Shown here one piece after another: positions 3,317 through 61,957 of a stretch of DNA of 64,000 nucleotides. The first letter of the stretch is position 1, and each line of letters begins with the position of its first letter. This stretch comes from Dehalococcoidia bacterium. GTDB lineage: Bacteria; Chloroflexota; Dehalococcoidia; DSTF01; WHTK01. Location: the NCBI GenBank assembly GCA_965225815.1, contig CBDDBP010000004.1, forward strand, positions 85,074-149,073, written 5' to 3'. The notes beneath the pieces are model-generated. The model saw only the letters and a program-made list of their open reading frames with translations. It was not told the DNA's origin and searched no databases. The position numbers and the translations under genes are program-made.

Positions 3317-4387
3317 CCCAGTCCAGTCTCATACCTACGCTCCGTCCAACCTCTGTAAGGGCGTGCCGTAAGGCCGTGCTTGATCGCGCTCGCGACGCCC
3401 ACAACGCGCCGCCCCGCCAAAGACCCCCTCGTCATTGTGAGGAGGCGCCAGCCGACGCCGCAATCCCGCGTCCACACCAACGCCCCAGCCCAGTTCACCT
3501 CTCCGCACCTCTTCAAAGCTGCAGGCTTCAACCTGCAGAACCGCATCCTCCAACCTCGCGCCGCCAACCCCCGAAACGGATGCAGCTTTAACTCCCTCCG
3601 AGGCGCTCTGTCCACAACTCCGCGCCTCCTCGAGCGCAGCCAACCTCCGTAGGGACGCAGCTTTAGCTCCGTCCGCTGCGCTCCGTCCAACCTCCGTAAA
3701 GCCGTGCTTGATCGCGCTCGCGACGCCCCGTCAAAGACCCCCTCGTCATTGCGAGGAGGCGCCAGCCGACGCCGCAATCCCGCGTCCACACCAACGCCCC
3801 ACCACAGTTCACCTCCCCACACCTCTTCGGTTCTGCAGGTTGAAACCTGCAGAACCGCATCCTCCAACCCCGCGCCGCCAACCCCCGTACGGACGCAGCT
3901 TTAACTCCCTCCGAGGCGCTCCGCCCACAACTCCGCGCCTCCTCGGGCGCAGCCAACCCCCGTAGGGACGCAGCTTTAGCTCCGTCCGCGGCGCTCCAAC
4001 CCAGTCCACCAAACGGTCTGTCCTGCCCAACGCCAGCAGGCGCCGCCCCATCCTCCACAGTCCCTCGCCTCGCAAGGAGAGGGACACGCGGCAGCGAGGA
4101 AGCGGTCGGCGCCCCGGCTTCAGTTATCAAAGCCGGTCGCGCAGCTGCTAGGCGTCCCTTACCCCCGAAGAGATCCCGAGTCCGCTGGGAAGTCATATGG
4201 TCCGGTCGATTCACTAAGACAGCGGGGTTAGTAGGGGCGCAACCCCTGCGGGGGGAGTCTGAGGGGTCTCCCCTCAGGGCTTTTGATGAACGGGCGAAGC
4301 GCACAAGCCCAACCGACAGGGCGGGCGCAGGTCGCGCAGCCTTCCGACGCCCCATGCGCCCGTACACCGCGAAAGCGTCTACGGTCC
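3317..4387. repeat. Composite intergenic repeat region between ftsW and murD. It holds two tandem copies of a ~315-330-bp unit (about 3345-3676 and 3677-3990), then an 'R2' hairpin element (GGGGCGCA(A/G)CCCCTGCGGGGGGAGTCTGAGGGGTCTCCCC, ~4231-4345) and a partial 'R3' fragment (~4100-4145).
   Basis: GTGCTTGATCGCGCTCGCGACGCC occurs at 3376 and 3704, a period of 328. The core GTAGGGACGCAGCTTTAGCTCCGTCCGC occurs at 3649-3676 and 3963-3990. The palindrome CTGCAGG(C/T)TTCAACCTGCAG appears in each unit. Confidence 0.85.
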
Positions 4388-5731
4388 TCACGCCTGGCCC
4401 CCAAGCGCCAGCACATGCCGCCGAAAATCCTCGCCCCGCTGCTCAAACTTCTCGTACGCGTCGAAGCTCGTGCACGCCGGCGACAGCAACACCACGTCGC
4501 CCTCCTGCGCCAACCTCGAAGCCGCCCTCACCGCGTCCGCCACCGTCTCAACCCGCGTCGCGTCCAGCCCCACGGCCTTCGACGCCTCCGCTAACATCCG
4601 TCCCGCCTCCCCGAAACACACCACCGCCCGGCACGATCGCTTCGCCTCGGCCAGCATCTGCTCCAGCGGCAACTGCTTTTCGCGCCCGCCCACCAGCAAC
4701 ACGATCGGCTCCTCAAACGACCGCAGCGCCGCCAACGTCCGCTCCGGCGCCGTCGCGATGCTGTCGTTGAAATAGTCCACGCCATTCACAGTCGCCACCG
4801 GCTCAAGTCGATGCGCCGGCGGCTTGAACTCCCGCACCGCCTGCCCCACCGCCTCCGGCGCCAGCCCGCAGGCCGATGCCACGGCCGTCGCCGCCGCCAC
4901 ATTCGCCACGTTGTGCTGCCCCCGGAGCGGGATTTCCCTCACCCTCACCACCTGGTAGCTCTTGCCGGCTTGTCGCATGTAGACCACGCCGTCTTTCACG
5001 TAGGCCCCGTTCATCCCGTGGTCGCCTCCCAGGCTGAACAGCAGCACGTCGCTCGGCGCCGTCGACGCCATCTCGCGCGACATCGGGTCGTCGGCGTTAA
5101 ATACGCACGCCGCGCCGGGCGCCTGAAACTCAAAAATACGGCGCTTCAGCGCCACGTACTCCTCCCAGGTGAATTGGTCTAGATGATTCGGCGTCACATT
5201 CGTCAGCGCCGCCACGTCCGGGCTGCGTTCCAGGAGCTGCAGCTGCGTATGGCTCACCTCCAGCACCGCCGGCTGCGACGCCTCCGCGCCTTCAAGCAAC
5301 CCCATCAACCCGACGCCGATGTTGCCCCCCATCACGTGCGCCCGGTTCGCCGCCGTGTACATCGAATCCACCAGCGCCGTCGTCGTCGTCTTCCCGCTCG
5401 ACCCCGTGATCCCCACGATCGGCCCCGGGTACTTCTCGAAAAACAGGCTCGTCATCGAACGTACCGGCGTCCCCGCCTCGCGCGCCGCGATCACCGCCGG
5501 TATCCCCAACGGCACGCCTTGCGACACGCAGACCAGGTCCGCGCCCTCAACGTCCTCCGGTGAATTCTCCCCAACCCGAAACGTAACGCCGCGACCCGTC
5601 AGCTCCTCCCGCACCTGCGCCAGCGACTCCGGCACCCGCACGGTGCTCACCAGCACCTCATCCCCCTGCGCCATGAAATACCGCGCCAGGTCCTCCCCCT
5701 CGATCGAAAACCCGATCACCGTGACCCTCAC
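4388..5731 (-). CDS. murD: UDP-N-acetylmuramoylalanine--D-glutamate ligase
   Basis: 447 aa with the GITGSSGKTTT P-loop. Mur ligase family, in the murD position. Confidence 0.9.
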   Translation of the reverse strand: MRVTVIGFSIEGEDLARYFMAQGDEVLVSTVRVPESLAQVREELTGRGVTFRVGENSPEDVEGADLVCVSQGVPLGIPAVIAAREAGTPVRSMTSLFFEKYPGPIVGITGSSGKTTTTALVDSMYTAANRAHVMGGNIGVGLMGLLEGAEASQPAVLEVSHTQLQLLERSPDVAALTNVTPNHLDQFTWEEYVALKRRIFEFQAPGAACVFNADDPMSREMASTAPSDVLLFSLGGDHGMNGAYVKDGVVYMRQAGKSYQVVRVREIPLRGQHNVANVAAATAVASACGLAPEAVGQAVREFKPPAHRLEPVATVNGVDYFNDSIATAPERTLAALRSFEEPIVLLVGGREKQLPLEQMLAEAKRSCRAVVCFGEAGRMLAEASKAVGLDATRVETVADAVRAASRLAQEGDVVLLSPACTSFDAYEKFEQRGEDFRRHVLALGGQA

Positions 5732-5870
5732 GCCGCACCCCCAACGCTCCTGGCCGTCCCCAACCGTAGGGACACAGCTCTAGCTCCGTCCGCGACGCCC
5801 TAACGCCGTCCACCAACGCTGCCTGCTCGTCGCCTAACCTCCAGCGCCTCATACGGCTTCCAGCCCATCC
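5732..5870. repeat. Short intergenic repeat between murD and mraY carrying the core variant GTAGGGACACAGCTCTAGCTCCGTCCGC (5765-5792).
   Basis: Same core motif as in the other dcw intergenic regions. Confidence 0.7.
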
Positions 5871-6842
5871 TCACTCCACCACCGCCAAACCCACGCCCGC
5901 CAATCCCCCCAGCAACCCGATCACCCAGAACCGCGTCACCACCTGCGTCTCCGTCCATCCCCCGAGCTGAAAGTGGTAATGGATCGGCGCCATGCGGAAC
6001 ACCCGCCGGCCGCCCGTCTTCTTGAAATAGGCAATCTGGATCACGTCCGACAGCCCCTCCGCCACGAACACGATGCCGATCACCGGCAGCAGCAGCCACC
6101 AGCCCGTCATGAACGCCAGCACCACCAGCCCGATCGCCAGCGCCTGTGACCCCACCTCGCCCATGAACACCTGCGCCGGATAAGCGTTGAACCACAGGAA
6201 CGCCGCCAGCGACCCGGCCACCGCGAACCCGAACGCCGCCAGCTCCTCCTGCCCTTGCGACAGTGCGATCGCCCCGTAGGCTCCGTAAGCGATCGCACTC
6301 ACGCCGGCCATCAGCCCGTCCATCCCGTCCGTAATCACGATGCCGCTCGTCCCGGCAACCATCACCCCGATAACGACCGGTATGTACAGCACGCCCAGGC
6401 TGTAGTCGCCAAAATGCGGCACGAGCACCGATTCCAGGTCCATCTCGTAATACAGCACCAACGCCACGATGACGCCCACCGCCACCAGCACGCCCCACTT
6501 CACCACCCAGAGCCATCGCTCGTGTCCCGCCGTCTCCTTCGATCCCACTAGCGTCTGAAAATCATCGAATGTCGCCAGCACTGCCGCCGCACTCATCGCG
6601 CCCAGAGGCAGCCAAACGTCCCCGGCTCGTAGCGCCGCGAGCGGTATCGCCGCCGCCGCAATGCCAACAAGAAACATCACGCCGCCCATCGTCGGCGTCC
6701 CCGCCTTCTCTGCGTACGCCTCCGGCGCCTCCGTGTCGGCCTGCTTGCCCAGCTTGCGCCGCCGCAGCTCCGAAACCACGGGACCGCCAACCGCCAGAGT
6801 CACCACCAGCGCCAGGCATCCCGCCAACATCGCCTCTACCAC
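5871..6842 (-). CDS. mraY: Phospho-N-acetylmuramoyl-pentapeptide-transferase
   Basis: 323 aa membrane protein, MraY family. Confidence 0.9.
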   Translation of the reverse strand: MVEAMLAGCLALVVTLAVGGPVVSELRRRKLGKQADTEAPEAYAEKAGTPTMGGVMFLVGIAAAAIPLAALRAGDVWLPLGAMSAAAVLATFDDFQTLVGSKETAGHERWLWVVKWGVLVAVGVIVALVLYYEMDLESVLVPHFGDYSLGVLYIPVVIGVMVAGTSGIVITDGMDGLMAGVSAIAYGAYGAIALSQGQEELAAFGFAVAGSLAAFLWFNAYPAQVFMGEVGSQALAIGLVVLAFMTGWWLLLPVIGIVFVAEGLSDVIQIAYFKKTGGRRVFRMAPIHYHFQLGGWTETQVVTRFWVIGLLGGLAGVGLAVVE

Positions 6843-7267
6843 GGACTCACCCCACTGTAGTCAGACCGCTTTGGTGAGAGCCGGCTTGGCTCGCCGAAAC
6901 ACAGCGAATTCGTTCTGATTATGCCTGGTACTCTGGCGTCAGCAGGGGAAGTGGGGGCACAGCCCCCGCGGGGGGAGTCTGAGGGGTCTCCCCGCAGGTT
7001 AACTTTGATAGATGGGCGAAGCGCACAAGCCCACCCGACAGGAAGGGCGCCGGTCGCGCAGCCTCTACGCCCCGTCCAGCCGTCTTCAGTGGGGTCTCGG
7101 GGCCAAGCCCCGGCTTCAGTTATAGAGCCCGCAGGCCGCGCAGGCCTCAACGCCTCGTCCAGCCGTCTTCAGTGGAGTCTCGGGGCCAAGCCCCGGCTTC
7201 AGTTATAGAGCCCGCAGGCCACGCGGTCCTCAACGTCTCGTACTGAATTGATGACCTCATGGCAACA
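6843..7267. repeat. Intergenic repeat region between mraY and ftsI. It holds an R2 element (~6945-7070) followed by two tandem 82-bp R3 units (7073-7154 and 7155-7236).
   Basis: The R3 unit CGTCCAGCCGTCTTCAGTGG(G/A)GTCTCGGGGCCAAGCCCCGGCTTCAGTTATAGAGCCCGCAGGCC... is duplicated head-to-tail. It carries the hairpin GGGGCCAAGCCCC. Confidence 0.85.
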
Positions 7268-9004
7268 CTAGCGCCCCTGCACCAGCGCGTCGTTCGGTCG
7301 CACATTCAGATACGCCAGGATCTTCGGCGCCAACTTGCCGAACACCGGCGCCGCCACGATGCCGCCCAACGGGTCGTCCTGGGGTTGATCGATCTTCACT
7401 AGCACGATGATCGCCGGGTCGTCAACCGGCGCGAACCCTACGAACGTCGCCAGCGTCGAATCCAGCGCATAGCCTGTCGGTATCGAAACCAGCGTCGTCC
7501 CCGTCTTGCCGCCCACGTCGTAGCCTCTCACCTGCCCCAGGTGCCCGGCCACGCCGTCAACGACCTGGTGCATCATCTCCACCATCGTCTCTGACGTCCT
7601 CGGCGATACCGTCTGCCGCACAACGACCGGCTCATAAACCCTTCGGCCGTCCGGTCCGTCGATTTCCGCAACGATGTACGGGCGCATCAGCTGCCCGCCG
7701 TTAACCACCGACGCGATCGCCGTAATCACCTGCAATGGCGTCGCCGCGATACCCTGCCCGTAGCTGTTTGTCGCCAGGTCCGACGCGTACCACTCGTTAT
7801 CTTTGTGCGTCCGCAGCAGCCCCGCCGACTCGCCGCCCAGTCCCGAGTGCGTTGGCTCGCCGAAGCCGAACCGCTCGATGCTGTCATAAAGCAGCTCCGG
7901 CCCGATCTGGTCGCTCAGCCAGATCGCTCCTGTGTTCAGGCTCTTCTGCAGCAGTTGCGTCATCGTCGTCTCGCCGTTCGCGCTGAAGTCCCAGTTCGCG
8001 AACGTGTATCCACCCTTCTCCACCACCCCGGAGTCGTAGTACGTCGTGTTCGGATTGACCAGCCCCAGGTCGATCGCGGTGGCCATCGTGATCACCTTCA
8101 GGACCGACCCCGGCTCGTACGCATCCGTCACCGCCCGGTTCCGATACAGGTCCTGCGCCGGGTTGTCGAGGTCAAGTTCGGAAAGCCGGAAGCTCGGACG
8201 GCTCGCCATCGCCAGGATCGCGCCCATCTTCGGCTCCATCACGATGATGCTGCCGCCCGACGCCTCGTGCGACGCAAGCTGAAAGTCCAGCTCGTCCTCG
8301 ACCAGGCTCTGGATATAGCGGTCGATCGTCAGTCGAACGTCCGAGCCCGGCTGTCCCGGTTGCTCCTGCGTCCGGCCCACGGCGATCGGTTGACCGCCGC
8401 CATCTCGTTCGAAGTACAACACTCCGGGCTGTCCGCCCAGGATCGACTCCAGGTCCGCTTCCAATCCGGCCAGGCCGCTGTGATCGCGACCCAGGAAGCC
8501 CAGCAGCGTTGAGGCCGTATCGCCCTCTGGATAGAACCGCTCCGTCGCGGCGGCCACCGTCACGCCCGGAAGCGCCAGCCGGTCGATCGCCAGGCCGGCC
8601 GAAAACTCGATGCCGTCCGCCAGCAACTCAATCGGCCCGTCTGCCTCAGCCAGCAAATGCGCCAGCATCAACTCAGAATCACCGCCCAGGTTTTCCGTGA
8701 GGCCGGCGGCCGTCTCCTGCGCCTTCGTAATGTCTTCTGCCCAGGCGCGCCGGTCGATATACACGTCGAACACGTCGATCGAAGTCGCCAGCGGGAAGCC
8801 GCTGCGGTCCAGGATCGCCCCGCGCTCCGACCGCACCAGCTTCTTCTCCCCGTGCACTTCCTGCACTTCGAGCCGGTAGTCTTCGTGCTCCAGCACCTGG
8901 ATCTGCACCAGGCGCCCCACGACGCCGCCGGTCGAAAGCAGCAACACCATCGCCAGCACCCCGAAGCGCCACGTAAACCGAGACCGCCCCGCCATCAGGC
9001 CCAA
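7268..9004 (-). CDS. ftsI: Peptidoglycan D,D-transpeptidase (penicillin-binding protein 2/FtsI class)
   Basis: 578 aa with an N-terminal membrane anchor, a PBP dimerisation domain and a transpeptidase domain. It lies in the dcw position after ftsL. Confidence 0.85.
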   Translation of the reverse strand: MGLMAGRSRFTWRFGVLAMVLLLSTGGVVGRLVQIQVLEHEDYRLEVQEVHGEKKLVRSERGAILDRSGFPLATSIDVFDVYIDRRAWAEDITKAQETAAGLTENLGGDSELMLAHLLAEADGPIELLADGIEFSAGLAIDRLALPGVTVAAATERFYPEGDTASTLLGFLGRDHSGLAGLEADLESILGGQPGVLYFERDGGGQPIAVGRTQEQPGQPGSDVRLTIDRYIQSLVEDELDFQLASHEASGGSIIVMEPKMGAILAMASRPSFRLSELDLDNPAQDLYRNRAVTDAYEPGSVLKVITMATAIDLGLVNPNTTYYDSGVVEKGGYTFANWDFSANGETTMTQLLQKSLNTGAIWLSDQIGPELLYDSIERFGFGEPTHSGLGGESAGLLRTHKDNEWYASDLATNSYGQGIAATPLQVITAIASVVNGGQLMRPYIVAEIDGPDGRRVYEPVVVRQTVSPRTSETMVEMMHQVVDGVAGHLGQVRGYDVGGKTGTTLVSIPTGYALDSTLATFVGFAPVDDPAIIVLVKIDQPQDDPLGGIVAAPVFGKLAPKILAYLNVRPNDALVQGR

Positions 9005-9894
9005 CCCCGCCCGTCATGCGACGCCGCAGTGCCCAGGTCCGTATCGCCGAGCGCAGCAAGGCGACCGTAGGGAGGCAGCTTTAGCTCCGTCCGCTGCGCC
9101 TCGTAACGGCGATCAACGTCGAGGCCAGCCCCACCAACCCCAGCGGCGTCAGTACGGGCGCAGTGCATCGTGAAGTCCGCCGAAGGGCCCCTGCGCGGAG
9201 ACCCTGAGCGGTGCCCCCTAAGGGTTAGCAAAGTAGATGCCGGAGTGCCCAGGTCCGTGTCACTGAGCGCAGCAAGGCCACCGTAGGGACGCAGCATTAG
9301 CTCCGTCCACAACGCCGCATGCCCCTCATCTAACGCAAACTCAGCCCCACCAACCCCAGCGGGGTCAGAAGGGGCGCAGTGCATCCTGAGCTCCGCCGAA
9401 GGTTCCCTGCGCGGAGACCCTGAGCAGTGCTCCTTCAGGCTTAGCAAACTAGATACGCGAGCGCCCAGGTCCGTATCGCCGAGCGCAGCAAGGCCACCGT
9501 AGGGACACAGCTTTAGCTCCGTCCGCAACTCCTCATGCCCCTCATCCAGCGCAAACTCAGCCTCACCAACCTCAGCGGGGTCAGTAGGGGCGCAGCCCCT
9601 GCGGGGGGAGTCTGAGGGGTCTCCCCGCAGGTTAGCTTTGATAGAAGGGCGAAGCGCACAAGCCCGCCCGAAAGGAAGGGCGCCGGTCGCGGAGCTAGAC
9701 GCCACGGCGTCAGCTACACCAACGCTCTCGGCGCCGCCTTTAGTGGGGTCTCGGGGCCAAGCCCCGGTTTCAGTTAGCAAAGCAGGACGCGCAGCCCTTC
9801 CTCGACAAACCGTCCTCAAGCCAAAGCGCACCGGAGCACCTGTCATCTCAACTCCCACGCCCTTGCCCCGGCGCCCTCTCGTCTGTCCTCTAGA
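9005..9894. repeat. Intergenic minisatellite between ftsI and ftsL. It holds three tandem copies of a ~216-bp unit (starting ~9029, ~9246 and ~9461), then an R2 element (~9590-9700) and an R3-like element (~9720-9800).
   Basis: The 28-bp core occurs at 9067-9094, 9283-9310 and 9499-9526, a period of 216. The GTGCCCAGGTCC anchors lie at 9029, 9246 and 9461. The units carry a variant hairpin GCCGAAGGGCCCCTGCGCGGAGACCCTGAGCGGTGCCCCCTAAGGG. Confidence 0.85.
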
Positions 9895-10326
9895 TCACGG
9901 CAGCGGAAGCGCCCGGTACAACGATTGCCACCACGGCTCCACGTCAGTGCTCTCAGCCAATGGCTCAACCAGTGGACGCGGCAACAAGACCCCCTCGGGA
10001 GCCTCAACCTCAACCGACAGGTAGCTGACGTTTCGCCCCTGGATCATTCCCAGTTGCTCTCGTGCCACCCGCTCAGTGCGGTCCAGTGATGTCAGCTGTG
10101 CTACCTCAGCCTGCAGGTCATATACCTCAGCCTTCAAGGCGATTCGCTCCGCCTCCAGGCGCTGCAGTTGTTGACCCGTGTTTGCCGAGCTGCTCGATTG
10201 CACAACCTGGAGAAGCGCGATAACCGCCGAAATCGCAAGGGCGACGGCTATCGCGCGACGGGGCCCCCAGGTTGCTGCCGATGGCGCCTCTAAGGACGCC
10301 GGACCAAGGCGATCGAGTGTTGCCAT
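9895..10326 (-). CDS. ftsL: Cell division protein FtsL-like (septum formation initiator family)
   Basis: 143 aa with one TM helix (AIAVALAISAVIALL) followed by a coiled-coil segment (LQRLEAERIALKAEVYDLQAEVAQL). It lies between rsmH and ftsI. Confidence 0.55.
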   Translation of the reverse strand: MATLDRLGPASLEAPSAATWGPRRAIAVALAISAVIALLQVVQSSSSANTGQQLQRLEAERIALKAEVYDLQAEVAQLTSLDRTERVAREQLGMIQGRNVSYLSVEVEAPEGVLLPRPLVEPLAESTDVEPWWQSLYRALPLP

Positions 10327-10934
10327 GCCAACACCTCACGCCGTAATCGTGGACCGCAGCCCACGACGTGATGTCTCAAACCTCTCGTCGAGACGAAGCT
10401 CTAGCTCCGTCCACAACGCCTCGTGCCTCTCATCCACACCGACGCCAGCAGCCTCGGAATCCACACAGTCCATATCAGACGAGCTCGGAACGTCTCCGCC
10501 CAGGTCCGTATTGCCGAGCGCAGCAAGGCGGCCGTAGGGACGCAGCTTTAGCTCCGTCCGCAACCCCTCATGCCCCTCATCCAGCGCAAACTCAGCCCCA
10601 CTAACCTCAGCGGCGTCAGTAGGGGCGCAGCCCCTGCGGCGGGAGTCAGAGGGGTCTCCGCTAAGGTCGTCTGATAAAGGGGCGGAGCGCACAAGCCCAA
10701 CCGTCAGGGCGGGCGCAGGTCGCACAGCCCCAAACGCCTCGTACCCGCGATCAAACGCAACCTCGGCCACACCAACCCCAGCAGGGTCAGTAGGGGCGCA
10801 GCCCCTGCGGCGGGAGTCTGAGGGGTCTCCCCTCAGGTCGCTCAGAAGAAGAGCGGAGCGCACAAGCCCAACCGATAGGGCGGGCGTAGGTCGCGTAGCT
10901 TCAAACGCCTCAACGAAGTCCAACCCCACCACGC
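10327..10934. repeat. Intergenic repeat region between ftsL and rsmH. It carries the core motif (10535-10562, and a partial copy at ~10389-10412) and two R2 elements ~179 bp apart (~10616 and ~10795).
   Basis: GTCAGTAGGGGCGCAGCCCCTGCGGCGGGAGTC(T)GAGGGGTCTCC occurs twice. The ORF 10336..10938 (-) is built entirely from these repeats. Confidence 0.8.
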
Positions 10935-11879
10935 TCACGCCGCCAGTCGCTCCGCCGCCCGCAACTTCGCGCTACGGCTCCGCGGGTTTGCCGCGACTTC
11001 CTCCCGCGATGGCGTCACAGTCCCCTTCGTAACCGGCTTCAGCGTGGCCTTGTGGTCACACGTACAGACCGGCTGCGATGGTGGGCAAACACAATCACGC
11101 GACTCTCGAGCAATGAACTGCTTAACAATGCGATCCTCAAGTGAGTGGTAACTGATCACCACTAGTCGGGATCCAAAGCCAAGCAGACCGTGAGCCCAGG
11201 GCAACGCCTCGGCCAGGCTGGCTAGTTCCTGGTTGACGGCAATGCGAAGGGCCTGAAACGTCTTGGTGGCGGGGTGGATTTGACTTCCAGTCCTCCGGCC
11301 CACGGCCTGCTCGACGGCTTTGGCTAGTTCGGTGGTCGTCCCCAAAGGACGGCCGTTGACAATGGCTCTGGCAATACGGCGGCTGCGCCGCTCCTCGCCA
11401 AAACGCCAGATGATATCTGCTAATTCTTCTTCCGGCGCCTCGTTCACCCAGTAAGCAGCCGTCGGCTCCTCACTCGGACCGAAGCGCATGTCCAGCGGCG
11501 CCTCCACGCGAAAGCTAAACCCCCGCACGCTCGCCAATTGGTGCGATGAAAGCCCGAGGTCGAACAGAATCCCGTTCACCGGCGCGAATCCGCCCTCGCG
11601 GCACAGCCGGTCCAGCTCTCGAAAGTTCCCCTGCACGATGGCGACACCGTCTCCGAATCGCGACAGCCGCTCCCGCGACATCTCAATCGCCCTGGGATCC
11701 GCGTCGATTCCCAGCAACGTGCCACCCGGCTTCGCAGCCTCCAGGATCGCCTCGGCATGGCCGCCACCGTTCACCGTGCAGTCCACGTAGCGGCCGCCCG
11801 GGCGCACGTCCAGCGCCGCGATTACCTCTCGCGGCATCACCGGGTCGTGCGTCACACGTGCGTCCATCACCAGCGTCAT
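10935..11879 (-). CDS. rsmH: 16S rRNA (cytosine1402-N4)-methyltransferase RsmH (MraW)
   Basis: 314 aa, MraW family, with a SAM-binding fold. It overlaps the mraZ stop by 4 nt. Confidence 0.9.
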
Positions 11880-28783: not shown

Positions 28784-29374
28784 GTGCCCAACAACGCGAT
28801 CCTCGAATCGGTACGCGGATTTGACCTGCGGCTTCAGACGCAGCCGGGTGTATTCGCTCATCGTGAACTGGATGAAGGCACGCGTCTCTTGATCGAAGCC
28901 ATGCGTGTCTCACCAACGGCCCGCGTTTTGGACTGGGGTTGTGGTTACGGCGCCATCGGAATCATCGCCGCGAAGCTCGCGACAAAAGGTCATGTCACGC
29001 TTGTCGATGTCGACATACGTGCGACGCGTCTCGCCCAGCGAAATCTCGAGATGAACAAAGTCGAAAACGCGGACGTAGTGCTGGGCGACGGGACCGACGA
29101 CCTGCCACCTAAAACTCGCTTCGACCTTATTCTCAGCAATCCTCCGACCCACAGTGGTCGCGAAGTGCTCGACAGCCTCGTGACAAGCTCGTTCAAAGCC
29201 CTGCGTCCTCGCGGTCAGATATACCTCGTCATCAATCGACTGCTTAGCCTCCGACGAGAGGTTGAGGACATCTATGGAAACACGGAGACGGTTGCCCGAC
29301 AAAAAGGCTTCGTTGTCATCCGTGCCGTCAAGGTGCCTCGCCTTCACGAAAGCGACTTGATCAACGAGCGATAA
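28784..29374 (+). CDS. Class I SAM-dependent methyltransferase (RsmC/RlmG-like small-domain methyltransferase)
   Basis: 196 aa with VLDWGCGYGAIGI (motif I) and LILSNPPTH, the N-methyl-transferase NPPx motif. Confidence 0.75.
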   Translation: MPNNAILESVRGFDLRLQTQPGVFAHRELDEGTRLLIEAMRVSPTARVLDWGCGYGAIGIIAAKLATKGHVTLVDVDIRATRLAQRNLEMNKVENADVVLGDGTDDLPPKTRFDLILSNPPTHSGREVLDSLVTSSFKALRPRGQIYLVINRLLSLRREVEDIYGNTETVARQKGFVVIRAVKVPRLHESDLINER

Positions 29375-29392
29375 TGATCGAGGAGGTGCGCT

Positions 29393-29647
29393 ATAGCGAG
29401 CCAGAAACTGAAGATCGAACTGCTTTACTGCCGGCCTTGAAACTACTACACCGCACGCGCCGCGTGGACGGCGCAGGAACTGCTGCAGACATTTGGCGAA
29501 TGGACCGACGGCGTCACTCTTATTCCTGGCGACCGCGGCGCCTTCGAAATCTCCGTCAACGGCGAAGAGATCTACTCCAAGTTGAAGACCGGCCATTTCC
29601 CTGACCTCGACGAACTGAATCAGTCAATCCAGAAACTGGTCGAGTGA
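29393..29647 (+). CDS. Rdx/SelW-family selenoprotein (CxxU) with an in-frame TGA (Sec) at 29438-29440. The start codon is uncertain.
   Basis: Frame 2 reads ...QKLKIELLYCRP-U-NYYTARAAWTAQELLQTFGEWTDGVTLIPGDRGAFEISVNGEEIYSKLKTGHFPDLDELNQSIQKLVE*. This matches the Rdx consensus (KIEIEYCxxUx..RAAWxAQELL...L.PG.GG.FE..V.G..I.SK...G.FP). A GGAGGTG SD lies at 29382-29388. No ATG/GTG/TTG occurs in frame between the upstream TGA (29375) and the CxxU motif. A hairpin GCGCCG-CGTGGA-CGGCGC at 29457-29474 sits 17 nt after the UGA. The track ORF 29374..29604 is the wrong frame. Confidence 0.6.
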
Positions 29648-29673
29648 TTACGAACGCCTGCTAGGCTTAGCGC

Positions 29674-30702
29674 GTGGGGGGCGTCTCTCTTTACTACGAT
29701 CCCTTGTTCCTGGGCCACGACACGCTGACCCACCCTGAAAGCGCCTCTCGCGTCGAAGCATGTCTTGGCCTGCTTGAGGACTCAGGTGTCGTCGCCCAAC
29801 TCGGACGGCCCGAGTGCCGTGACGCCACCCTGGACGAGCTGTCTCGCATTCACACCCCAGCCCACATCGAACGCATGCGCACCATTGGCGATCGCGGGCC
29901 CGTAATGGTCCTCGCCGATACGATCGCGAACACGGGAACCTACGCTGCCGCACTTCGTGCCGCTGGAGCCGTCATGGGAGCGACAGAGGCCGTCCTTCAT
30001 GGCGACTTCGATTCTGCCTACTGTCTGACGCGCCCGCCCGGCCACCACGCCGTCGCCACGGCGCCCATGGGCTTCTGCTTCTTCAACAACGTCGCGGTCG
30101 CAGCGCGCCACGCCACCGACATTCTTGAGCTCGAACGTATTGCCATTGTCGACATCGACATTCATCACGGTAACGGCACGCAGGACGCCTTCTTCGACGA
30201 TCCGCGAGTCCTCTACGTGTCCACGCATCAGTACCCCTACTATCCTGGCAGCGGGCACTGGCGTGAGGCCGGTGACGGCACGACGCTCAACCTGTCCCTC
30301 CCAGGCGGATGCGGTGACGCCGAATATGCGCTGCTTTTCGACCAGATCATCACGCCCAAACTGCGCGCCTTTCGGCCGCAGCTCATCCTGGTCTCCGCCG
30401 GCTACGACGCCCACCACGCCGACCCTATCGACGGCTCTCTGATGCGTCTGTCGTGTGCTGGATATGCTGCGCTCGTCACCGGCTTGCGGACCCTTGCGCA
30501 GGAGCTCTGTGGCGGCCGAATCGTAGTTGCACTCGAAGGCGGTTATGACCTCACGGCATTATCCTGGAGCGTCCGCAATAGCATCGAAGCGCTTCTCAGC
30601 GATCCCCTGACGCCCGATCCGATCGGCCCAGCGCCCGACAGTCAGCGCCCTGATCTCTCCGAGCTGATCTCAGGGATCAAAGCGCTACACGGCCTTGCCT
30701 AG
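29674..30702 (+). CDS. Histone deacetylase / acetoin utilisation AcuC family protein (arginase-deacetylase fold)
   Basis: 342 aa with RPPGHHA...DIDIHHGNGTQ...GGYD, the Zn-dependent deacetylase motifs. Confidence 0.8.
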   Translation: MGGVSLYYDPLFLGHDTLTHPESASRVEACLGLLEDSGVVAQLGRPECRDATLDELSRIHTPAHIERMRTIGDRGPVMVLADTIANTGTYAAALRAAGAVMGATEAVLHGDFDSAYCLTRPPGHHAVATAPMGFCFFNNVAVAARHATDILELERIAIVDIDIHHGNGTQDAFFDDPRVLYVSTHQYPYYPGSGHWREAGDGTTLNLSLPGGCGDAEYALLFDQIITPKLRAFRPQLILVSAGYDAHHADPIDGSLMRLSCAGYAALVTGLRTLAQELCGGRIVVALEGGYDLTALSWSVRNSIEALLSDPLTPDPIGPAPDSQRPDLSELISGIKALHGLA

Positions 30703-50144: not shown

Positions 50145-51101
50145 CTACGGTGACGGCTCAGCGCCAGGCGCCTCATCGAATAGCTGGACGAATTGCCACC
50201 CGAAACGCCCCTTGATGCAGAGGTTCCCGCTGGTCACGTCGTGATCTAGCGGGGAGGTCACTTTGACTATCCGGTCATCCTGAACATGCAGCTCCAGCGT
50301 GCAACCAACGCCACAGTAAGGGCAGATCGTGTCCGTCTTCGTCTGACGTCCTTCGTCCCAGGTGCCCGCCTGCCGCATATCGTACTCGGACTTGAACATG
50401 AGAGACCCGGTGGGGCAGACGGCAATGCAGTTGCCGCAATACACGCAGGCCGAATCCGGCAGAGGTGTCGTGAACTCGGTTGAAACGCGAGCATCAAAGC
50501 CGCGCCCGGCGATCCCCAGGGCGAACGTGTTCTGATGATCGTAGCCGCACGCCTCGACGCACTTGTAGCAGAGGATGCAGCGAGAGTAGTCACGAACGTA
50601 CAGGTTGTTGTCCACTTTGACCGGCTGATGCACTGTTGCCGCGTTGCCATCGGTCGCGTGATGGTGCCCGGTCAAGGCGGCGTCGCGTTCGCCTTCGTTG
50701 GCTGCCGCCGCCGCCGGGCCGAACCGTGCAGGCTGAGCGGCGTAGCGCTCAAGGTACCCCTGCACCTCAGGAGGCGCGTAGGACAGATCTACTGACGACG
50801 CGAGGAGTTCTAGCACCAGGCGCCGGCTGTGCTCAACGCGCTCGCTATCCGTCTTGACGACCATGCCTGGATCAACCTTGCGGGAACATGCCGGTACTAG
50901 CGTTCGCGAGCCTTCGAGCTCTACCACGCAGAGCCGGCACGCGTTAACCGGCGTTAACGTCTCCAGGTAGCACAGCGTCGGCGTGTCGATCCCCTGCTCC
51001 CGGCAGGCATCCAGGATCGAGGTGCCCTCAGCTACGCTGACTGGTCGCCCGTCGATCGTCAGCTCCACCTGGCGTGTCGGCGCTGCAAGACGGTTGGTCA
51101 C
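50145..51101 (-). CDS. Formate dehydrogenase Fe-S subunit carrying the N-terminal domains usually fused to FdhA/NuoG (2Fe-2S ferredoxin, two 4Fe-4S, and the MopB 4Fe-4S domain; HylA/NuoG-N-terminal-like)
   Basis: 318 aa with an N-terminal 2Fe-2S (CYLETLTPVNACRLCVVE), CxxCxxCxxxCP ferredoxin motifs, and at the C-terminus ICPYCGVGCTLELHVQDDRIVKVTSPLDHDVTSGNLCIKGRFGW (the molybdopterin-oxidoreductase Fe4S4 domain). Confidence 0.8.
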   Translation of the reverse strand: MTNRLAAPTRQVELTIDGRPVSVAEGTSILDACREQGIDTPTLCYLETLTPVNACRLCVVELEGSRTLVPACSRKVDPGMVVKTDSERVEHSRRLVLELLASSVDLSYAPPEVQGYLERYAAQPARFGPAAAAANEGERDAALTGHHHATDGNAATVHQPVKVDNNLYVRDYSRCILCYKCVEACGYDHQNTFALGIAGRGFDARVSTEFTTPLPDSACVYCGNCIAVCPTGSLMFKSEYDMRQAGTWDEGRQTKTDTICPYCGVGCTLELHVQDDRIVKVTSPLDHDVTSGNLCIKGRFGWQFVQLFDEAPGAEPSP

Positions 51102-52990
51102 GAAGTCCTCCCTTTCTGAAAGACGCCCAGTTTCTCGATAGCCGACTGCACCGCGCTCGCGGCGGTCTGGCCCAGGCCGCAGATTGAAGCGTCGCGCATG
51201 ACCTGCGCAATCTCGCCAATGAGCATGACATCATCGCTTACGGTCCCCAGTGGACGCCCTGCGGCCAATCGCTGTAGAGCCTCTTCCTGTCGCTGCGTTC
51301 CAACACGACAAGGGACGCATTGCCCACACGATTCGTCACGGAAAAATGCGCCGATACGCGACACGAAACCTTCTAGGTCGGCACTTTCGGCGATTGCCAT
51401 CACAACACCCGACCCCAGTGACGCGCCGATGTCCCGCGTACCCTCGAATGTCAGCGGCACGTCCAATTCATCGGGCAGTACAAATCCGCCCGCCGCGCCA
51501 CCCAGCAGAACGGCTCGCAGGATTTCGCCAGATGGCAATCCTCCAGCCATTGCCATTAGCTCTCTTAGCGTGACGCCGAACGGCACCTCGTAGACGCCGG
51601 GACGCTGAATCGCGCCCGATAGGCAGAACAGCTTGGTACCCTTCGACTCCTGCGTTCCTGTCGCCGCATAGGCAGCTCCGCCTCGCATCACGATGTCGAT
51701 GACGTTGATCAATGTCTCGACGTTGTTGATAACGGTCGGCTTGCCGAATAGACCGACCTGCGTCGGGAAAGGCGGCTTGTTGCGAGGCTCCCCGCGGAAG
51801 CCTTCGATAGAGTTAAAGAGCGCGGTCTCCTCGCCGCAGATATAGGCTCCGGCGCCCAATCTCAACTCAATATCGAACGCGATGTCCGAGTTCATCACGC
51901 CTTGGCCCAGGAAGCCACGTCGACGGGCGGTCGCAATGGCGTTTTGCAACCGTTGGGCCGCCAGCGGGTATTCGCCGCGAAGATAGATATAGCCCCGCGC
52001 CGCGCCGGCCGCGTAGCCGGCGATCGTCATTGATTCGATGACCGAGAACGGGTCTTCCTCCATGATTACGCGATTGCTGAAGGTTCCAGGCTCCGACTCG
52101 TCGGCGTTGCAGACAACGTAGTGCGGCCGTACTGGTGCCGAAGCCACATCTTGCCACTTGCGTCCTGTGGGAAAGGCCGCTCCGCCTCGACCTTGTAGAC
52201 CCGATTCTTGAACCTCGCGAATGATCCCCGCAGAACCCAACTCGATCGCCCGCCGCAGTGCCGTATAACCGCCAGCCGCCCGATACTCATCGAGACTCCC
52301 TGGGTCGATCCGTCCAACGCGCTCAAGAAGACGAAGAGCCTGACCGTTTCGATCCAGCGTTTGGGGAGCTGATGGCGATCCCTTGCGCCGCACCGGGGTC
52401 TCCGGCGCTCCGGCGCCAGACGCTAGCTGCGCAACGACTACATCCGCGCTCGCCGGCGCAATGACCACGTCGCTCGCAGCCTCTCCTGAATGCTGGAAGA
52501 GAACCGCAGGGGCCATTTCGCAGAGACCTAGACAAGGACTGTGTTTCCACGTTACCTCGCCATTCAACGTAGGCTGGCCTGCCAGGCCTGGTTCCTGCTC
52601 TAGCGCCTGGCAAAGCTCCAGCCCTCCTGCCATTCGGCAGGCAAGGTCATCACAGACGTGGGCAACACGGGGAGGCATCGGTTCGACATAGAGCAAGGCG
52701 TAAAACGTGGCAACGCCGTAGGCCTCTGCCGGCGGGACTTCAAGACGCTGACAGATGTAATTCAGGGCGCCCGGAGTAATGTATCCGACTCGTCGTTGAA
52801 CAGCCTCCAGCGTTGGTAAGAGAAGGTGCCGTTCCTTACGGGAGTCGTACCCGCCGCGACCGAGAAACCAGTCGTCCGCCGCATTCTCGCGGCGAATCTC
52901 CCAACCCGTCTCCGGCTGGCCGAGCAACGCATCCACCGCGGCTCGTTCGGAGTCATCCGGAACGGCGTTCGGGATTAGATGTAGGTCCAC
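51098..52990 (-). CDS. NAD(P)H-dependent formate dehydrogenase/NADH dehydrogenase diaphorase subunit, a fused NuoE-like (thioredoxin-like 2Fe-2S) and NuoF-like (FMN/NAD/4Fe-4S) protein
   Basis: 630 aa. The N-terminal NuoE-like domain (VCDDLACRMAGG) precedes NuoF motifs (GGAGAYICGEETAL; ESCGQCVPCRVG). Confidence 0.85.
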   Translation of the reverse strand: MDLHLIPNAVPDDSERAAVDALLGQPETGWEIRRENAADDWFLGRGGYDSRKERHLLLPTLEAVQRRVGYITPGALNYICQRLEVPPAEAYGVATFYALLYVEPMPPRVAHVCDDLACRMAGGLELCQALEQEPGLAGQPTLNGEVTWKHSPCLGLCEMAPAVLFQHSGEAASDVVIAPASADVVVAQLASGAGAPETPVRRKGSPSAPQTLDRNGQALRLLERVGRIDPGSLDEYRAAGGYTALRRAIELGSAGIIREVQESGLQGRGGAAFPTGRKWQDVASAPVRPHYVVCNADESEPGTFSNRVIMEEDPFSVIESMTIAGYAAGAARGYIYLRGEYPLAAQRLQNAIATARRRGFLGQGVMNSDIAFDIELRLGAGAYICGEETALFNSIEGFRGEPRNKPPFPTQVGLFGKPTVINNVETLINVIDIVMRGGAAYAATGTQESKGTKLFCLSGAIQRPGVYEVPFGVTLRELMAMAGGLPSGEILRAVLLGGAAGGFVLPDELDVPLTFEGTRDIGASLGSGVVMAIAESADLEGFVSRIGAFFRDESCGQCVPCRVGTQRQEEALQRLAAGRPLGTVSDDVMLIGEIAQVMRDASICGLGQTAASAVQSAIEKLGVFQKGRTS

Positions 52991-52999
52991 GTTGGCAGT

Positions 53000-54919
53000 C
53001 TAAACCAATGCTTGGCTTGGAGCAGTTGAGAGCTTTTCTATGCGTATGGCGGCAGCCTTGAACTCAGCCGTACCGGACCGCGGGTCTGTCTCGTCAATCG
53101 TAATAGTGTTTGAGGCGACGTCATCCGGGAAATGCAACGTCATGAACGCAAGCCCAGGACGGAGGGTCGAATCGAACCTGACCGGTGCCTCGATGGCACC
53201 ACGCCGCGAAACCACCCGGACGATTTCGCCATCAGCCAACCCGAGGCGCAAGCCGTCTTCAGCGTGGATATCCAGAGATTCGCCCCTGCGCAGAGGCGAC
53301 GTGTAACCGCCTGTCTGGACGCCCGTGTTGAACGAATCGAGACGCCGACCGGTGGTAAGCCTGATCGGGTACTCCTCACTGAGCTGCTCAACCGGCCCCT
53401 CATGTTCAACGACGCTGAACGGAGCCGGCGGGCCCTCCAGAGGCTCGCTCCAAAGCCGGCCGTGGAGGAATTGGCTTCCGGGATGATCCTCCGCCGGGCA
53501 CGGCCAGTGGATGCCGTTGAGTTCCTCGAGGCGCGAGTAGCTCATGCCTCTGTGCCAGTCAGAAAGGCCGCGTAGCTCGTCCCATACGGCTTCCGCAGTC
53601 AGGTGACCCCAGTCGTGACCCATCAGCCGGGCAACTTCGCAAATCAGCTCCATATCGTCGCGCACGCCCTGAGGCGGATTCAACGCTTTGCGCACTCGTT
53701 GGACTCGACGTTCCGAACTAGTCACGGTCCCTTCAGACTCGCACCAGGAGGCGGCCGCAGGGAAAACAACGTTGGCGAGCTCAGCTGTCGCGGTAAGAAA
53801 GATGTCCTGCACAACCAGGTGGTCGAGGCCAGACAGGAGCTTTACTGCGCGTGTCGTGTCAGCCTCCGATTGGGCTGGGTTCTCTCCGATCACGTAGAGG
53901 GCCCGTAACTCACCCTCCTCCATTGCGTCGAACATCTCTGTCAGATTCTTCCCGCGCTTCGTGGAAAGCAATCGCTCGTAGACGCGCTCGAAGGGTGCCC
54001 GCTGCTGCTCGTTTTCGAGGTCGTTGCCGCCCGGTAGCCGGTTAGGCAGAGCGCCCATGTCGCCGCCGCCCTGGACGTTGTTCTGACCGCGCAGCGGCAC
54101 TAAGCCTGAACCGTAGCGGCCGATGTGTCCCGTAAGGAGCGCAAGGTTACACAGCGCCAGCACGTTATCGACGGCGTTGTGGTGCTCCGTAATACCAAGC
54201 GTCCAGCACAATTGCGCACGGTCCGCCCGGGCATAGGTGTGCGCCAGTTCGCGGATCGTGTCTGCCGGGACGCCGGTTACCTCCTGAGCGTAGTCGAGCG
54301 TATAAGGCTGGACGCACTGCTCATACTCCGCGAACCCGGTTGTCGCGTGCTGAATGAACGCCTCGTTGTGCAAGCCAGAAGCGATGATTTCGCGGCCAAT
54401 CGCGTTCGCCAGCGCGATGTCTGAACCGACGTCGAGGCCAAGCCACAGGTCAGCCCATTGCGCCGAAACGGTCCGCCGTGGGTCTACGACAGCCAGTCGG
54501 GCACCCCGGTTCACCGCCTTCATGACATGGTGAAAGTAGATAGGGTGAGTTTCGCGCGCGTTAGAACCCCAGAGGATGATGAGGTCTGCCTCTTCGGCCT
54601 CTTTGTATGAGCTCGTTCCCCCGCCTGCCCCGAATACTGCCGTCAGACCGACGACGCTGGGAGCGTGTCAAGTGCGGTTGCAGGAATCGATATTGTTGGT
54701 TCCGATGACCTGCCGGGCGAACTTCTGAGCCAGGTAGTTGACCTCGTTCGTCGCCTTGGAGCAGGAGAACAGGCCAAAGCTGTCAGGGCCATGCGCCGAA
54801 ACCGTGTCGCGGAATCCTTCTGCGGCGACAGCAAGTGCTTCGTCCCAAGTGGCCGGCCTCAGTTCCCCTCGCCTCCGGACGAGCGGCTGAGTCAATCTCG
54901 TATAACGCTTGGGCATCAC
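53000..54919 (-). CDS. fdhA: Formate dehydrogenase catalytic subunit, selenocysteine-containing (in-frame TGA at 54668-54670). It lacks the N-terminal Fe4S4 domain.
   Basis: ORFs 54668..54919 and 53000..54523 are in the same frame (54670-54523=147). Read-through gives ...NNIDSCNRT-U-HAPSVVGLTAVFGAGGGTSSYKEAEEADLIILWGSNARETHPIYFHHVMKAVNRGARLAVVDPRR, the FdhF/FdhA Sec active-site motif (cf. E. coli CCARV-U-HGPSV). The molybdopterin dinucleotide-binding C-terminus is present. A TAA at 54938-54940 closes the frame upstream, so the N-terminus is MMPKRYTRLTQPL... Confidence 0.8.
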
Positions 54920-54984: not shown

Positions 54985-55908
54985 CTATTCGACCAGACGT
55001 TTGGCGCCGCTGTACACATTCAACGAATCAGGCTTTACAAAGCCGCAAAGCGTTATGTTAAATGATTCGGCCAACTCAGCCGCCAGGCTTGACGGCGCTC
55101 CAACGGCTGCGACGACCGGGATGCGCGACACCAACGCTTTCTGTAGGAGCTCGAAGCTGGCCCGCCCACTCAGCATCAGAACGTAATCTGAGAGCGGCAT
55201 TGCTTCATGGAGGAAACGGTCACCAATCAGCTTGTCTACCGCATTGTGACGGCCAACGTCTTCGTACACCGCGACGAGATTGCCGTTGCCGTCAAAGAGG
55301 CCTGCGGCATGAAGACCACCCGTCTGTTCGAACACCACCTGCGCCTCTCGAACTCTTGCCGGCAACTCGCAGACCAGCTGCGCCGAGACCTCGAAGCCGG
55401 ATGGAATTGAGTCGCAGCCCTGGACTTCGAGTGATTCGAGCGCCGCCTTGCCACAGACGCCGCAGCTTGAGGTGGTGTAAAAGTTCCGCTCAAGGCGGGA
55501 AGAGTCGAAGACGAGGCCGGGCCGGAGCGTCACCCTGACCACGTTGAATGCCTGCTCCTCGGCTTCGTCGGTGCAGTAGGACACGTCGGCCACATCCTCG
55601 CGACCGCCGAGGATGCCCTCGCCGTACAGAAACCCCACGGCGAGCTCAAAATCGCTGCCAGGTGTCCGCATCGTCACGGCGATGCTCTTGGTGACGGAGT
55701 CTCGGCCGTCATTCCAGGTCAGACGTATTTCTAACGGCTCCTCGCCGGCAAGTCGGTCGTCAACCTCAGCCCAAGCACCAGCACGCCAACGACGGATCCG
55801 GTGGTCGATCAGTCCCCTCGGCTTGAAAGCGGTCATCGATGGTGCCTCGGATTCGTCGTTATGACGACTAGCATACCAGTAGGATCGGGCTAAGAGCGGC
55901 CAAGACAC
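54985..55908 (-). CDS. fdhD: Formate dehydrogenase accessory sulfurtransferase FdhD
   Basis: 307 aa with SSCGVCGKAALE and GLHAAGLFD...GRHNAVDK, the FdhD/NarQ family motifs. Confidence 0.85.
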   Translation of the reverse strand: MSWPLLARSYWYASRHNDESEAPSMTAFKPRGLIDHRIRRWRAGAWAEVDDRLAGEEPLEIRLTWNDGRDSVTKSIAVTMRTPGSDFELAVGFLYGEGILGGREDVADVSYCTDEAEEQAFNVVRVTLRPGLVFDSSRLERNFYTTSSCGVCGKAALESLEVQGCDSIPSGFEVSAQLVCELPARVREAQVVFEQTGGLHAAGLFDGNGNLVAVYEDVGRHNAVDKLIGDRFLHEAMPLSDYVLMLSGRASFELLQKALVSRIPVVAAVGAPSSLAAELAESFNITLCGFVKPDSLNVYSGAKRLVE

Positions 55909-57562: not shown

Positions 57563-57703
57563 CGTCCGGGACCGTATCGTGGCCTCTGATGCTTCGTAAC
57601 ATTAATCACAGTTCGCTGAGCAGTAATTGATACAATGGCCGGGTCACGGGCTGGGGCACGCACTTCTTGCGCGCACAATTCCTTTTTCTCCATTTCCTCA
57701 GGA

Positions 57704-60589: not shown

Positions 60590-61957
60590 CTAGGCTGTCC
60601 TCGCCGCCTTGACCGCAGCCACTAACGGCGCATCCTCACCAGGCTGCACGGTTCGAGGATCGAGGAGCAAGAGGCCGTCCTCAATACGTCCTACAACAGG
60701 TGTTTCGCCTTGACGCATTCGTTGCGCTAAAGCCTCCAGGGCACTGCCACTGGCTGCTGGCAGCGCCACCAGTTTCGTGGGCAGACTCTCTTCCGGCAGG
60801 CTGCCGCCGCCAATCATTGAACGGCCATCGACTACCGTCGAACCTGCCCCGATCTGGCGCGAGAGTCGTCTTGCTCGCGCGGCGACGTCCGTCAGCGGCG
60901 CAGAGATCATGCGCCAGACCGGCACCTCATTCTCCGCCTCACCCCTGGCATAGTGCAGCAGCGTCGCATTCAGTCCAGCGATGCTGGCCTTGTCCATGCG
61001 AAGCGCGCGCGCCAATGGATGTCGCCGTAGCCTGGCGATGAGGTCCTTTTTGCCCACGACAATGCCCGCCTGTGGCCCCCCCAGCAGCTTGTCGCCGGAA
61101 AACGCGACCATATCCGCACCAGCACTGATACTGTCCTGCGCCGTCGGCTCAGCGCTGAGTCCGTAAGCCTGCGTATTTAACAAGCAACCGCTGCCAAGGT
61201 CGTCAAGAAGCAGAAGGCCGCGCTCGTGCGCCAGCTTTGATAGGGCCTCCAGAGAAGTCGACTCGACGAAACCTACGACGCGAAAGTTGCTGCTGTGGAC
61301 ACGCATCAGTGCGGCTGTCTCATCGCCGATCGCGGTCTCGTAGTCTCGAGCGTAGGTCCGATTCGTCGTGCCGACCTCAATGAGGCGAGCGCCACTTTGC
61401 GCCATTACGTCGGGTATGCGGAAGCCACCGCCGATTTCGACCAGCTGGCCGCGCGAAATCACGACCTCACGCTCCTGCGCCAGGGCCGAGAGCATGAGCA
61501 GCAGCGCGGCGGCGTTGTTGTTAACAGCGATCGCGGCTTCGGCGCCTGTCACTCGACAAAGAAGTGCCTCTAGGTGGTCATAGCGACTGCCACGTCCACC
61601 AGACTCGAGTTCGTACTCCAGGTTGCTGTAGCCGCGACTCACACCAGCCATCGCAGCGATTGTCGAAGCGGACAGCGGGGCGCGCCCAAGGTTGGTGTGA
61701 ATGATCACCCCAGTCGCGTTGATTACGGGCCGCAGGCTGGCGCGTAGCGATGCGTAGGCGCGCTCGGCAGCTGCCCTGGCGATTGACTCGAGCGAGACCT
61801 CGGCTCCCCCGTTGCGTAGAGCTGCGCGCCGCTCCGCGAGCTCGACGCGGACGGCCTCGGTGGCCGCGGCAACTCCTACTTCACGGGCTGCTTGCTGCAA
61901 AACATCGGCAACAAGGACGCGATCTACCGAAGGCAGCCGACGATATTGGTTCGTCAT
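60590..61957 (-). CDS. selA: L-seryl-tRNA(Sec) selenium transferase
   Basis: 455 aa with RLPSVDRVL...SLRPVINATGVIIHTNLGRAPL, the SelA signature, and a PLP-dependent fold. Confidence 0.9.
   Translation of the reverse strand: MTNQYRRLPSVDRVLVADVLQQAAREVGVAAATEAVRVELAERRAALRNGGAEVSLESIARAAAERAYASLRASLRPVINATGVIIHTNLGRAPLSASTIAAMAGVSRGYSNLEYELESGGRGSRYDHLEALLCRVTGAEAAIAVNNNAAALLLMLSALAQEREVVISRGQLVEIGGGFRIPDVMAQSGARLIEVGTTNRTYARDYETAIGDETAALMRVHSSNFRVVGFVESTSLEALSKLAHERGLLLLDDLGSGCLLNTQAYGLSAEPTAQDSISAGADMVAFSGDKLLGGPQAGIVVGKKDLIARLRRHPLARALRMDKASIAGLNATLLHYARGEAENEVPVWRMISAPLTDVAARARRLSRQIGAGSTVVDGRSMIGGGSLPEESLPTKLVALPAASGSALEALAQRMRQGETPVVGRIEDGLLLLDPRTVQPGEDAPLVAAVKAARTA

Follow-up and report, generated by a model that had tools for sequence, protein, structure and literature searches.

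Is a short reading frame that carries the redox motif, the in-frame TGA and the ribosome-binding site of a bacterial selenoprotein gene, but has no canonical start codon, a real gene, and if so, where would its translation begin? The question is raised by a locus of a Dehalococcoidia bacterium lying in a stretch of 64,000 nucleotides (contig CBDDBP010000004.1), hereafter the window, to whose positions all coordinates refer. The original prediction for this locus was an Rdx/SelW-like CxxU selenoprotein hidden across two frames, with a hairpin downstream of its TGA. Here the locus is compared with its relatives and with sister strains of the same species.

The SelW-like gene and its relatives

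Direct reading of positions 29100–29900 and translation of 29375–29647 reproduced the coordinates of the original prediction (Table 1). The gene is not, however, split across two frames as had been supposed: it occupies a single frame, of which the Sec-UGA is the only break, and this frame is also that of the upstream methyltransferase (28784–29647 for the two genes together; 29375 − 28784 = 591 = 3 × 197). The tandem TAA-TGA and five sense codons separate the two genes, after which the frame runs from the ATA through ...KLKIELLYCRP-TGA-NYYTARAAWTAQELLQTF...QKLVE-TGA. The predicted product begins with (f)M/I-ASQKLK... and contains the segment GAFEISVNGEEIYSK. The same in-frame arrangement of methyltransferase and selenoprotein gene is found in two related loci (L001 and L003), but with a single TAA. 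Two other routes into the frame were considered and rejected. The tandem stops rule out readthrough from the methyltransferase into the Rdx gene that shares its frame, and a +1 frameshift from the frame-1 ATG at 29374 has no slippery or stop context and is not needed by any orthologue. The gene went unreported in the list of open reading frames because its frame has no ATG, GTG or TTG ahead of the Cys codon.

Table 1. Coordinates of the features discussed in the text (window positions).
Feature	Position	Strand	Details
Upstream methyltransferase ORF	28784-29374	+	PF05175 MTS, E=8.6e-45
Tandem stops TAA-TGA	29372..29377	+	End of the upstream methyltransferase; in frame with the selenoprotein gene; 18 nt before the ATA
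Methyltransferase stop TAA	29372-29374	+	Read from sequence
In-frame TGA after the methyltransferase TAA	29375-29377	+	Read from sequence
Shine-Dalgarno (SD) site AGGAGGTG	29381..29388	+	GGAGG core ends 6 nt before the ATA; GGAGGTG at 29382-29388
ATA at the place of the ancestral ATG; proposed AUA initiation codon	29393..29395	+	Codon alignment with orthologues
SelW-like (Rdx family) selenoprotein CDS	29393..29647	+	84 residues; stop TGA 29645-29647 included
Near-cognate CTG, in frame	29408-29410	+	Read from sequence
CxxU redox motif TGC CGG CCT TGA (Cys-Arg-Pro-Sec)	29429..29440	+	Sec codon 29438-29440
TACTAC, in-frame TAC duplication	29441..29446	+	Extra Tyr (NYYTAR); UGA-SECIS spacer 13 to 16 nt; polymorphic in the species
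Bacterial SECIS apical hairpin	29457..29474	+	6-bp stem GCGCCG/CGGCGC, loop CGUGGA; inside the R-A-A-W-T-A-Q codons
Formate dehydrogenase catalytic subunit (second selenoprotein)	53000-54916	-	TGA 54668-54670, motif CNRT-U-HAPSV
selA, L-seryl-tRNA(Sec) selenium transferase	60590..61957	-	PF03841, E=3.4e-144, profile positions 1-366 of 367

For profile and homology searches of the product, U was written as C. The protein matches PF10262 (Rdx) from end to end (E=6.5e-23; 81.2 bits against a cut-off of 22.6; profile positions 1–73 of 74) and the NCBIfam model TIGR02174 CXXU_selWTH, “SelT/SelW/SelH family” (69.7 bits against a cut-off of 34.2). The Cys-form structures 2p0g (“selenoprotein W-related protein”, E=1.2e-15), 2fa8 (Atu0228, E about 1e-15), 2obk, 2oka and 2ojl are matched over residues 3–83 with E values of 1e-15 to 1e-12, and their CxxC aligns with the CRPU of the window; they differ from it in having Cys for Sec, in extending about 20 residues further at the C terminus (...APxxxLGHSD) than the window clade does, and in lacking the extra Tyr, which leaves a one-residue gap in the alignment. 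With both family models above threshold and CRPU aligned with the family CxxU/CxxC in 129 loci, the assignment to the Rdx/SelW-like CxxU selenoproteins is borne out. By homology to these solved structures (E about 1e-15), the product is predicted to be a small redox protein with the thioredoxin fold, belonging to the SelW-like (Rdx, SelT/SelW/SelH) family.

SelW-like proteins are an established family of bacterial selenoproteins (PMC1794560). With the members described previously (PF10262; TIGR02174; surveys by Zhang, Gladyshev et al., PMC1794560, PMC1088965, PMC2398784) the gene shares the full-length domain of about 80 residues, the place of the CxxU, an in-frame UGA with Cys homologues, and a SECIS right after the UGA. 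It departs from them in starting with ATA and not with ATG, GTG or TTG, and in having, in the window strain, one more Tyr between the Sec and the following helix, which sets the SECIS 3 nt further from the UGA; moreover, the Chloroflexota clade to which it belongs is characterized by CRPU or CVPU with an invariant RAAWTAQELL. The family to which the gene genuinely belongs is known and very common in Chloroflexota; the gene represents no new kind of system.

A word-indexed protein search returned only three matches, because gene callers truncate Sec genes. P0002, one of the three, is a fragmentary call of 54 residues lying downstream of the UGA, and the JGI contig it comes from is fully syntenic with the window (SecF, MTase, Rdx, HDAC, CDGSH, HemN, AspRS). 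Scans with back-translated DNA were far more productive and gave 80 loci in GTDB species genomes and 47 in metagenomes, that is, 127 useful loci, nearly all of them from Chloroflexota (Dehalococcoidia, Tepidiformaceae and Anaerolineaceae-labelled MAGs). The co-orientation with a methyltransferase and an HDAC-family gene, also part of the original prediction, is seen, but as a lineage-specific trait and not as one of the family: only about 15 of the closest loci have the MTase-Rdx-HDAC-CDGSH neighbourhood, which is uninformative on function in general. Two related Rdx genes carry lesions. In L016 (CBDCMQ010000005.1) an in-frame TAG stands at the Trp of the “(F)AEW” found in others, and L077 (OZ241349.1) goes out of frame about 55 residues in; the lesions reflect either decay or errors of MAG assembly.

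On the opposite strand, an antisense ORF of 228 aa (28910–29596, −) spans the end of the methyltransferase and the greater part of the Rdx gene. Two public assemblies (L130 and L132) annotate it as a gene (227 aa, without a Pfam match) in place of the real ones; it is almost certainly spurious, a long-ORF product of high G+C. Elsewhere, the window holds an ordinary housekeeping locus, the dcw cell-wall and division cluster (1038–11879, −), with MraW, a PBP transpeptidase, a Mur ligase, MraY, FtsW and MurG.

The Sec codon, the hairpin and the selenium machinery

The codon aligned with the UGA at 29438–29440 is TGA in 111 of 129 loci and encodes Cys in the other 18 (TGC in 16, TGT in 2), a distribution that identifies this TGA as the Sec codon, as first proposed. 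The stem of the hairpin begins at the 17th nucleotide after the UGA, with 16 nt in between, and the hairpin as a whole reads, in codons, cGC GCC Gcg ugg aCG GCG Cag. In two of the six pairs both partners are wobble positions, so that these pairs are free to vary at the protein level.

Folding of the single sequence gave no support to this hairpin: for 29430–29500 the MFE z-score was 0.82, not distinguishable from chance, and RNAfold prefers another fold. Comparative evidence was used for this reason. On an alignment of 93 sequences the RNAalifold consensus is exactly the hairpin at 29457–29474. All 558 cells of its pairs (100%) are paired, a proportion that falls to 25–45% when the partner strand is slid, 28 double compensatory changes occur, and in none of 500 shuffles did the covariation rise to the observed value. 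The wobble–wobble pair 21–36 is CG in 65 of the 93 sequences, GC in 22, UA in 3, AU in 2 and GU in 1. When the 98 unique Sec forms are considered, the first wobble pair is C:G in 66, G:C in 26, U:A in 3, A:U in 2 and G:U in 1, the second is C:G in every one, and the loop codons GCG UGG are invariant; among the 18 Cys forms, which have the same RAAWTAQE peptide, the first pair is formed in 14 and the second in 8, and the loop Ala codon varies. A search against Rfam at gathering thresholds gave no match in the window. The complete pairing across the alignment, its compensatory changes and the consensus fold uphold the original reading of the hairpin as a SECIS: it is a genuine bacterial SECIS, which would recruit SelB with Sec-tRNA(Sec).

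The SECIS of E. coli fdhF, with an upper stem-loop of 17 nt in its minimal form, offers a comparison; 11 nt separate that stem-loop from the UGA (summarised in PMC8659212). The two elements have in common a short G+C-rich hairpin within the coding sequence, an apical loop containing G and U, and a fixed short distance from the UGA, which is 13 nt in the family described here. The hairpin of the window differs in its loop, CGUGGA, in having no evident bulged U, and in its 16-nt spacer, a distance that, set beside the 11 nt of E. coli, counts against a functional gene.

The window also bears on whether the organism can make selenoproteins, on which the original prediction depended. Of the Sec machinery it encodes SelA, along with a second selenoprotein, the catalytic subunit of a formate dehydrogenase (FDH; Table 1). 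The latter has its own hairpin, GUCGUC/GGUCU/GACGGC, 12 nt after its UGA. The selA gene stands alone, with neither selB, selD nor tRNA-Sec adjacent, and its downstream neighbour encodes a 390-aa protein with a weak Meth_synt_2 match. Neither selB, selC (tRNA-Sec) nor selD was found in the window or 8 kb beyond, which counts against a translated Sec gene; the 10 kb around selA contained no selB or selD, and with ARAGORN the window and three sister loci gave no tRNA, hence no tRNA-Sec. A GC3-based scan for further genes interrupted by TGA returned only FDH and noise.

The FDH gene is split by gene callers into pieces of 82 and 507 aa. This molybdopterin subunit begins after the usual N-terminal Fe4S4 domain; a Fer2/Fer4 gene apart from it (50145–51101) ends with a Molybdop_Fe4S4 domain instead. 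A NuoF-like gene (51098–52990) lies between the two, and FdhD is encoded upstream of FDH (54985–55908). Between the FDH cluster and selA there is a pair of genes, one EgtD-like (PF10017, histidine-specific methyltransferase; 56522–57562, +) and one EgtB-like (DinB_2 and FGE-sulfatase; 57635–58981, +), a combination that is the signature of ergothioneine-type biosynthesis.

The start codon and its alternatives

Direct reading confirmed that the frame is free of ATG, GTG and TTG from 29378 to 29428, up to the Cys codon, and the codon alignment shows an ATA at the orthologous start position. This ATA (29393) aligns with the ATG of L001, L003, L004, L084, L086, L089 and L126. Where the window reads ..AGG AGG TGC GCT ATA GCG AGC CAG AAA CTG AAG ATC GAA CTG.., L001 reads ..CGG AGG TAT TGC ATG GCT GAC GAG AAG CTG AAC ATC GAG CTG.., and the residues A-S-Q-K-L-K-I-E-L-L-Y-C that follow the ATA align without a gap with the orthologous M-A-D-D-K-L-K-I-E-L-L-Y-C. 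A single G>A transition at 29395 accounts for the missing start. Across all loci, starts are canonical and located 10–15 codons before the Cys, with the exceptions of the window and L057; the approximately 112 Sec-form loci nearly all have ATG, and a few GTG or TTG. The second exception (L057, CAZCDK010000116.1, about 2992–2994) is a SelW-like Sec gene with ATT aligned to the ATG of L116, L022 and L023, a weaker case because it comes from a co-assembly MAG, in which an error is possible. The strong SD of the original prediction, GGAGGTG, is confirmed, with the 6-nt spacing and the geometry of the orthologues (e.g., L001, cGGAGGTattgcATG), and its complementarity is 1–2 nt longer than that of close relatives (GGAGGT or AGGAGGT).

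Exact-protein look-ups with the flanking methyltransferase and HDAC recovered nine loci (L130–L138) from seven assemblies, five of them from ENA with long-read-style contigs of up to 3.49 Mb (ERZ21829562, ERZ25068966, ERZ25069191, ERZ28669063 and ERZ28763718) and two of them Logan short-read assemblies (ERR14231557 and ERR14231558). Their identity to the window is 99.78–100% over about 21 kb. ATA is present in all eight of these sister-strain loci that cover 29393–29395, which represent the seven assemblies, and the sister assemblies show no difference anywhere in 29378–29441. These data bear on the simplest explanation of the missing start, an artefact of sequencing or assembly that would conceal a true ATG, or a 1-nt indel near 29395–29400 that would join the frame to the frame-1 ATG at 29374. 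The ATG of the orthologues at the same position speaks for it, and the original prediction had taken such an ATG as a pointer to a sequencing error. The orthologues do have the ATG in the same frame, but the error attached to it is ruled out by the ATA of all independent assemblies of the species, which come from different samples and include both long-read-style and Logan short-read contigs. Nor is an indel needed, because the gene lies in one frame, the alignment with the orthologues is free of gaps from the start codon on, and the G>A change suffices. An artefact of either kind retains hardly any probability, and of the ways of initiation originally put forward, the indel finds no support, whereas non-canonical or coupled initiation survives. 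So does a recent loss of the start codon, which the original prediction had not named. That the locus holds a genuine gene for a SelW-like selenoprotein, with a SECIS and with an ATG>ATA change fixed in the species, is close to certain.

Translation could also begin further downstream, at the CTG at 29408 or the ATC at 29414, which would shorten the protein by 5–7 residues. Each of them is in frame and precedes the Cys, and a start at the CTG would still cover the Pfam domain, whose first residue is encoded at 29411. The SD, however, would then be 21–27 nt away, far beyond its working range, a start at the ATC would remove the first residue of the conserved first β-strand, and the starts of the orthologues all fall at the position aligned with the ATA. 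A downstream start is very unlikely.

The reading that we favour, and hold to be probable, is that of an intact SelW-like selenoprotein gene still translated, weakly, from AUA. Initiation with fMet would take place at the AUA at 29393, where it could be aided by the 8-nt SD match at its optimal 6-nt spacing and by ribosomes ending at the methyltransferase stop 18 nt upstream (termination-reinitiation coupling), and the output would probably be between a few per cent and about 15% of the AUG level. AUA is a measurable initiator in bacteria: its activity was 1–2% (0.02–3%) of that of AUG in E. coli reporters (bioRxiv 10.1101/063800), about 15% for T4 rIIB and 7.5% for a phage lysin, among older phage examples, and it was indistinguishable from AUG in vitro with an optimised initiation region (PMC5499595).

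Natural starts other than AUG, GUG and UUG, such as the AUU of infC (as summarised in PMC5499595), resemble the present one in having an AUH codon at the start place and a good SD upstream; IF3 discriminates against such codons, and their output is low or regulated. The window differs from infC in having AUA and in that its start is confined to the species, together with the one ATT case of L057, and is not conserved across orthologues, for which reason the AUA offers no evidence of being a selected regulatory device. It is doubtful that the AUA is functional in the stricter sense of being kept by selection, either for a very low level of the protein or for dependence on methyltransferase coupling or on IF3 and stress status. 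Were that the case, a natural bacterial gene for a selenoprotein would have AUA fixed as its start in the population, and the ATT of L057 would be an independent second case in the same family.

Variants within the species and the state of the gene

The TAC duplication that follows the Sec codon in the window is shared by L137 (Logan ERR14231557) and is absent from L130–L132, L134–L136 and L138 (ERR14231558), and five sister assemblies have a single TAC. The UGA-SECIS spacer is accordingly 13 nt in these five assemblies, as it is in 92 of 92 other Sec-form sequences, and the duplication is the only indel above noise in the 21 kb of the sister-strain comparison. The Logan contigs break at the TAC/TACTAC site (L137 ends at 29474, L133 starts at 29446 and L138 ends at 29467), a variant-bubble pattern which suggests that both alleles coexist in the samples. 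In the window strain, the displacement of the SECIS by 3 nt would be likely to lower Sec insertion further. The gene varies at other sites as well: L130 and L135 have a T>C change at 29598 that replaces Phe by Ser (Phe>Ser) where 89 of 91 orthologues have F or Y, and L136 has a synonymous C>G change at 29557. In total, about 3 variants fall in the 255-nt gene where about 0.9 are expected (P about 0.06), which is no significant excess, since in the flanking genes, too, non-synonymous differences between sister strains are about as frequent as synonymous ones.

These variants could be the first signs of decay in a recent pseudogene, inactivated by the ATG>ATA change in the ancestor of the species and left with an intact ORF by the short time elapsed. 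The ATA is unique among close orthologues and departs from a strongly conserved state, the TAC indel falls in this one short gene and breaks a spacing that is otherwise invariant, and together with the Phe>Ser change it would fit relaxed constraint. Loss of selenoproteins, SelW-like ones included, is documented and frequent in bacteria (PMC1794560), and the in-frame TAG of L016 and the frameshifted C-terminus of L077 are lesions of the same gene in other MAGs. Moreover, the sister strains differ by only about 0.15–0.2%, so a freshly dead gene would show an intact ORF as well. Set against this, the SD, the ORF, the Sec codon and the SECIS are intact in every strain, the SD being, if anything, stronger than in relatives, the Phe>Ser change is part of no significant excess, and AUA can initiate at a measurable level (10.1101/063800; PMC5499595). 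Of the 34 alignment columns with at least 90% conservation among 91 orthologues, the window also retains 32, the exceptions being the extra Tyr and a conservative E>D, and its dN/dS against relatives is low (0.13–0.28), in the same range as that of the relatives among themselves, although neither this pairwise measure nor the polymorphism test separates a weakly expressed gene from a freshly dead one. We regard a recent pseudogene as possible, yet rather unlikely, and retain weak translation of an intact gene from AUA as the preferred reading.

In every public assembly of the species the gene is missed by gene callers, because of its Sec-UGA and its non-canonical start, and its place is taken by a gap or by the spurious 227-aa antisense ORF, which makes it a clean test case for selenoprotein-aware annotation. 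For the family as a whole, the comparison reveals that the SECIS of SelW-like genes is very widespread across Chloroflexota and strikingly uniform, with its invariant loop CGUGGA and its 13-nt spacer. Only two features of the locus are unusual, the species-fixed ATG>ATA change and the 3-nt wider UGA-SECIS spacer of the strain, and the gene has either been tuned down or is just starting to be lost. The biological value of the locus is modest, that of a small case study of selenoprotein tuning or loss, which provides a population-level snapshot of a fixed start-codon downgrade together with segregating variants of the SECIS spacing and of the active fold.
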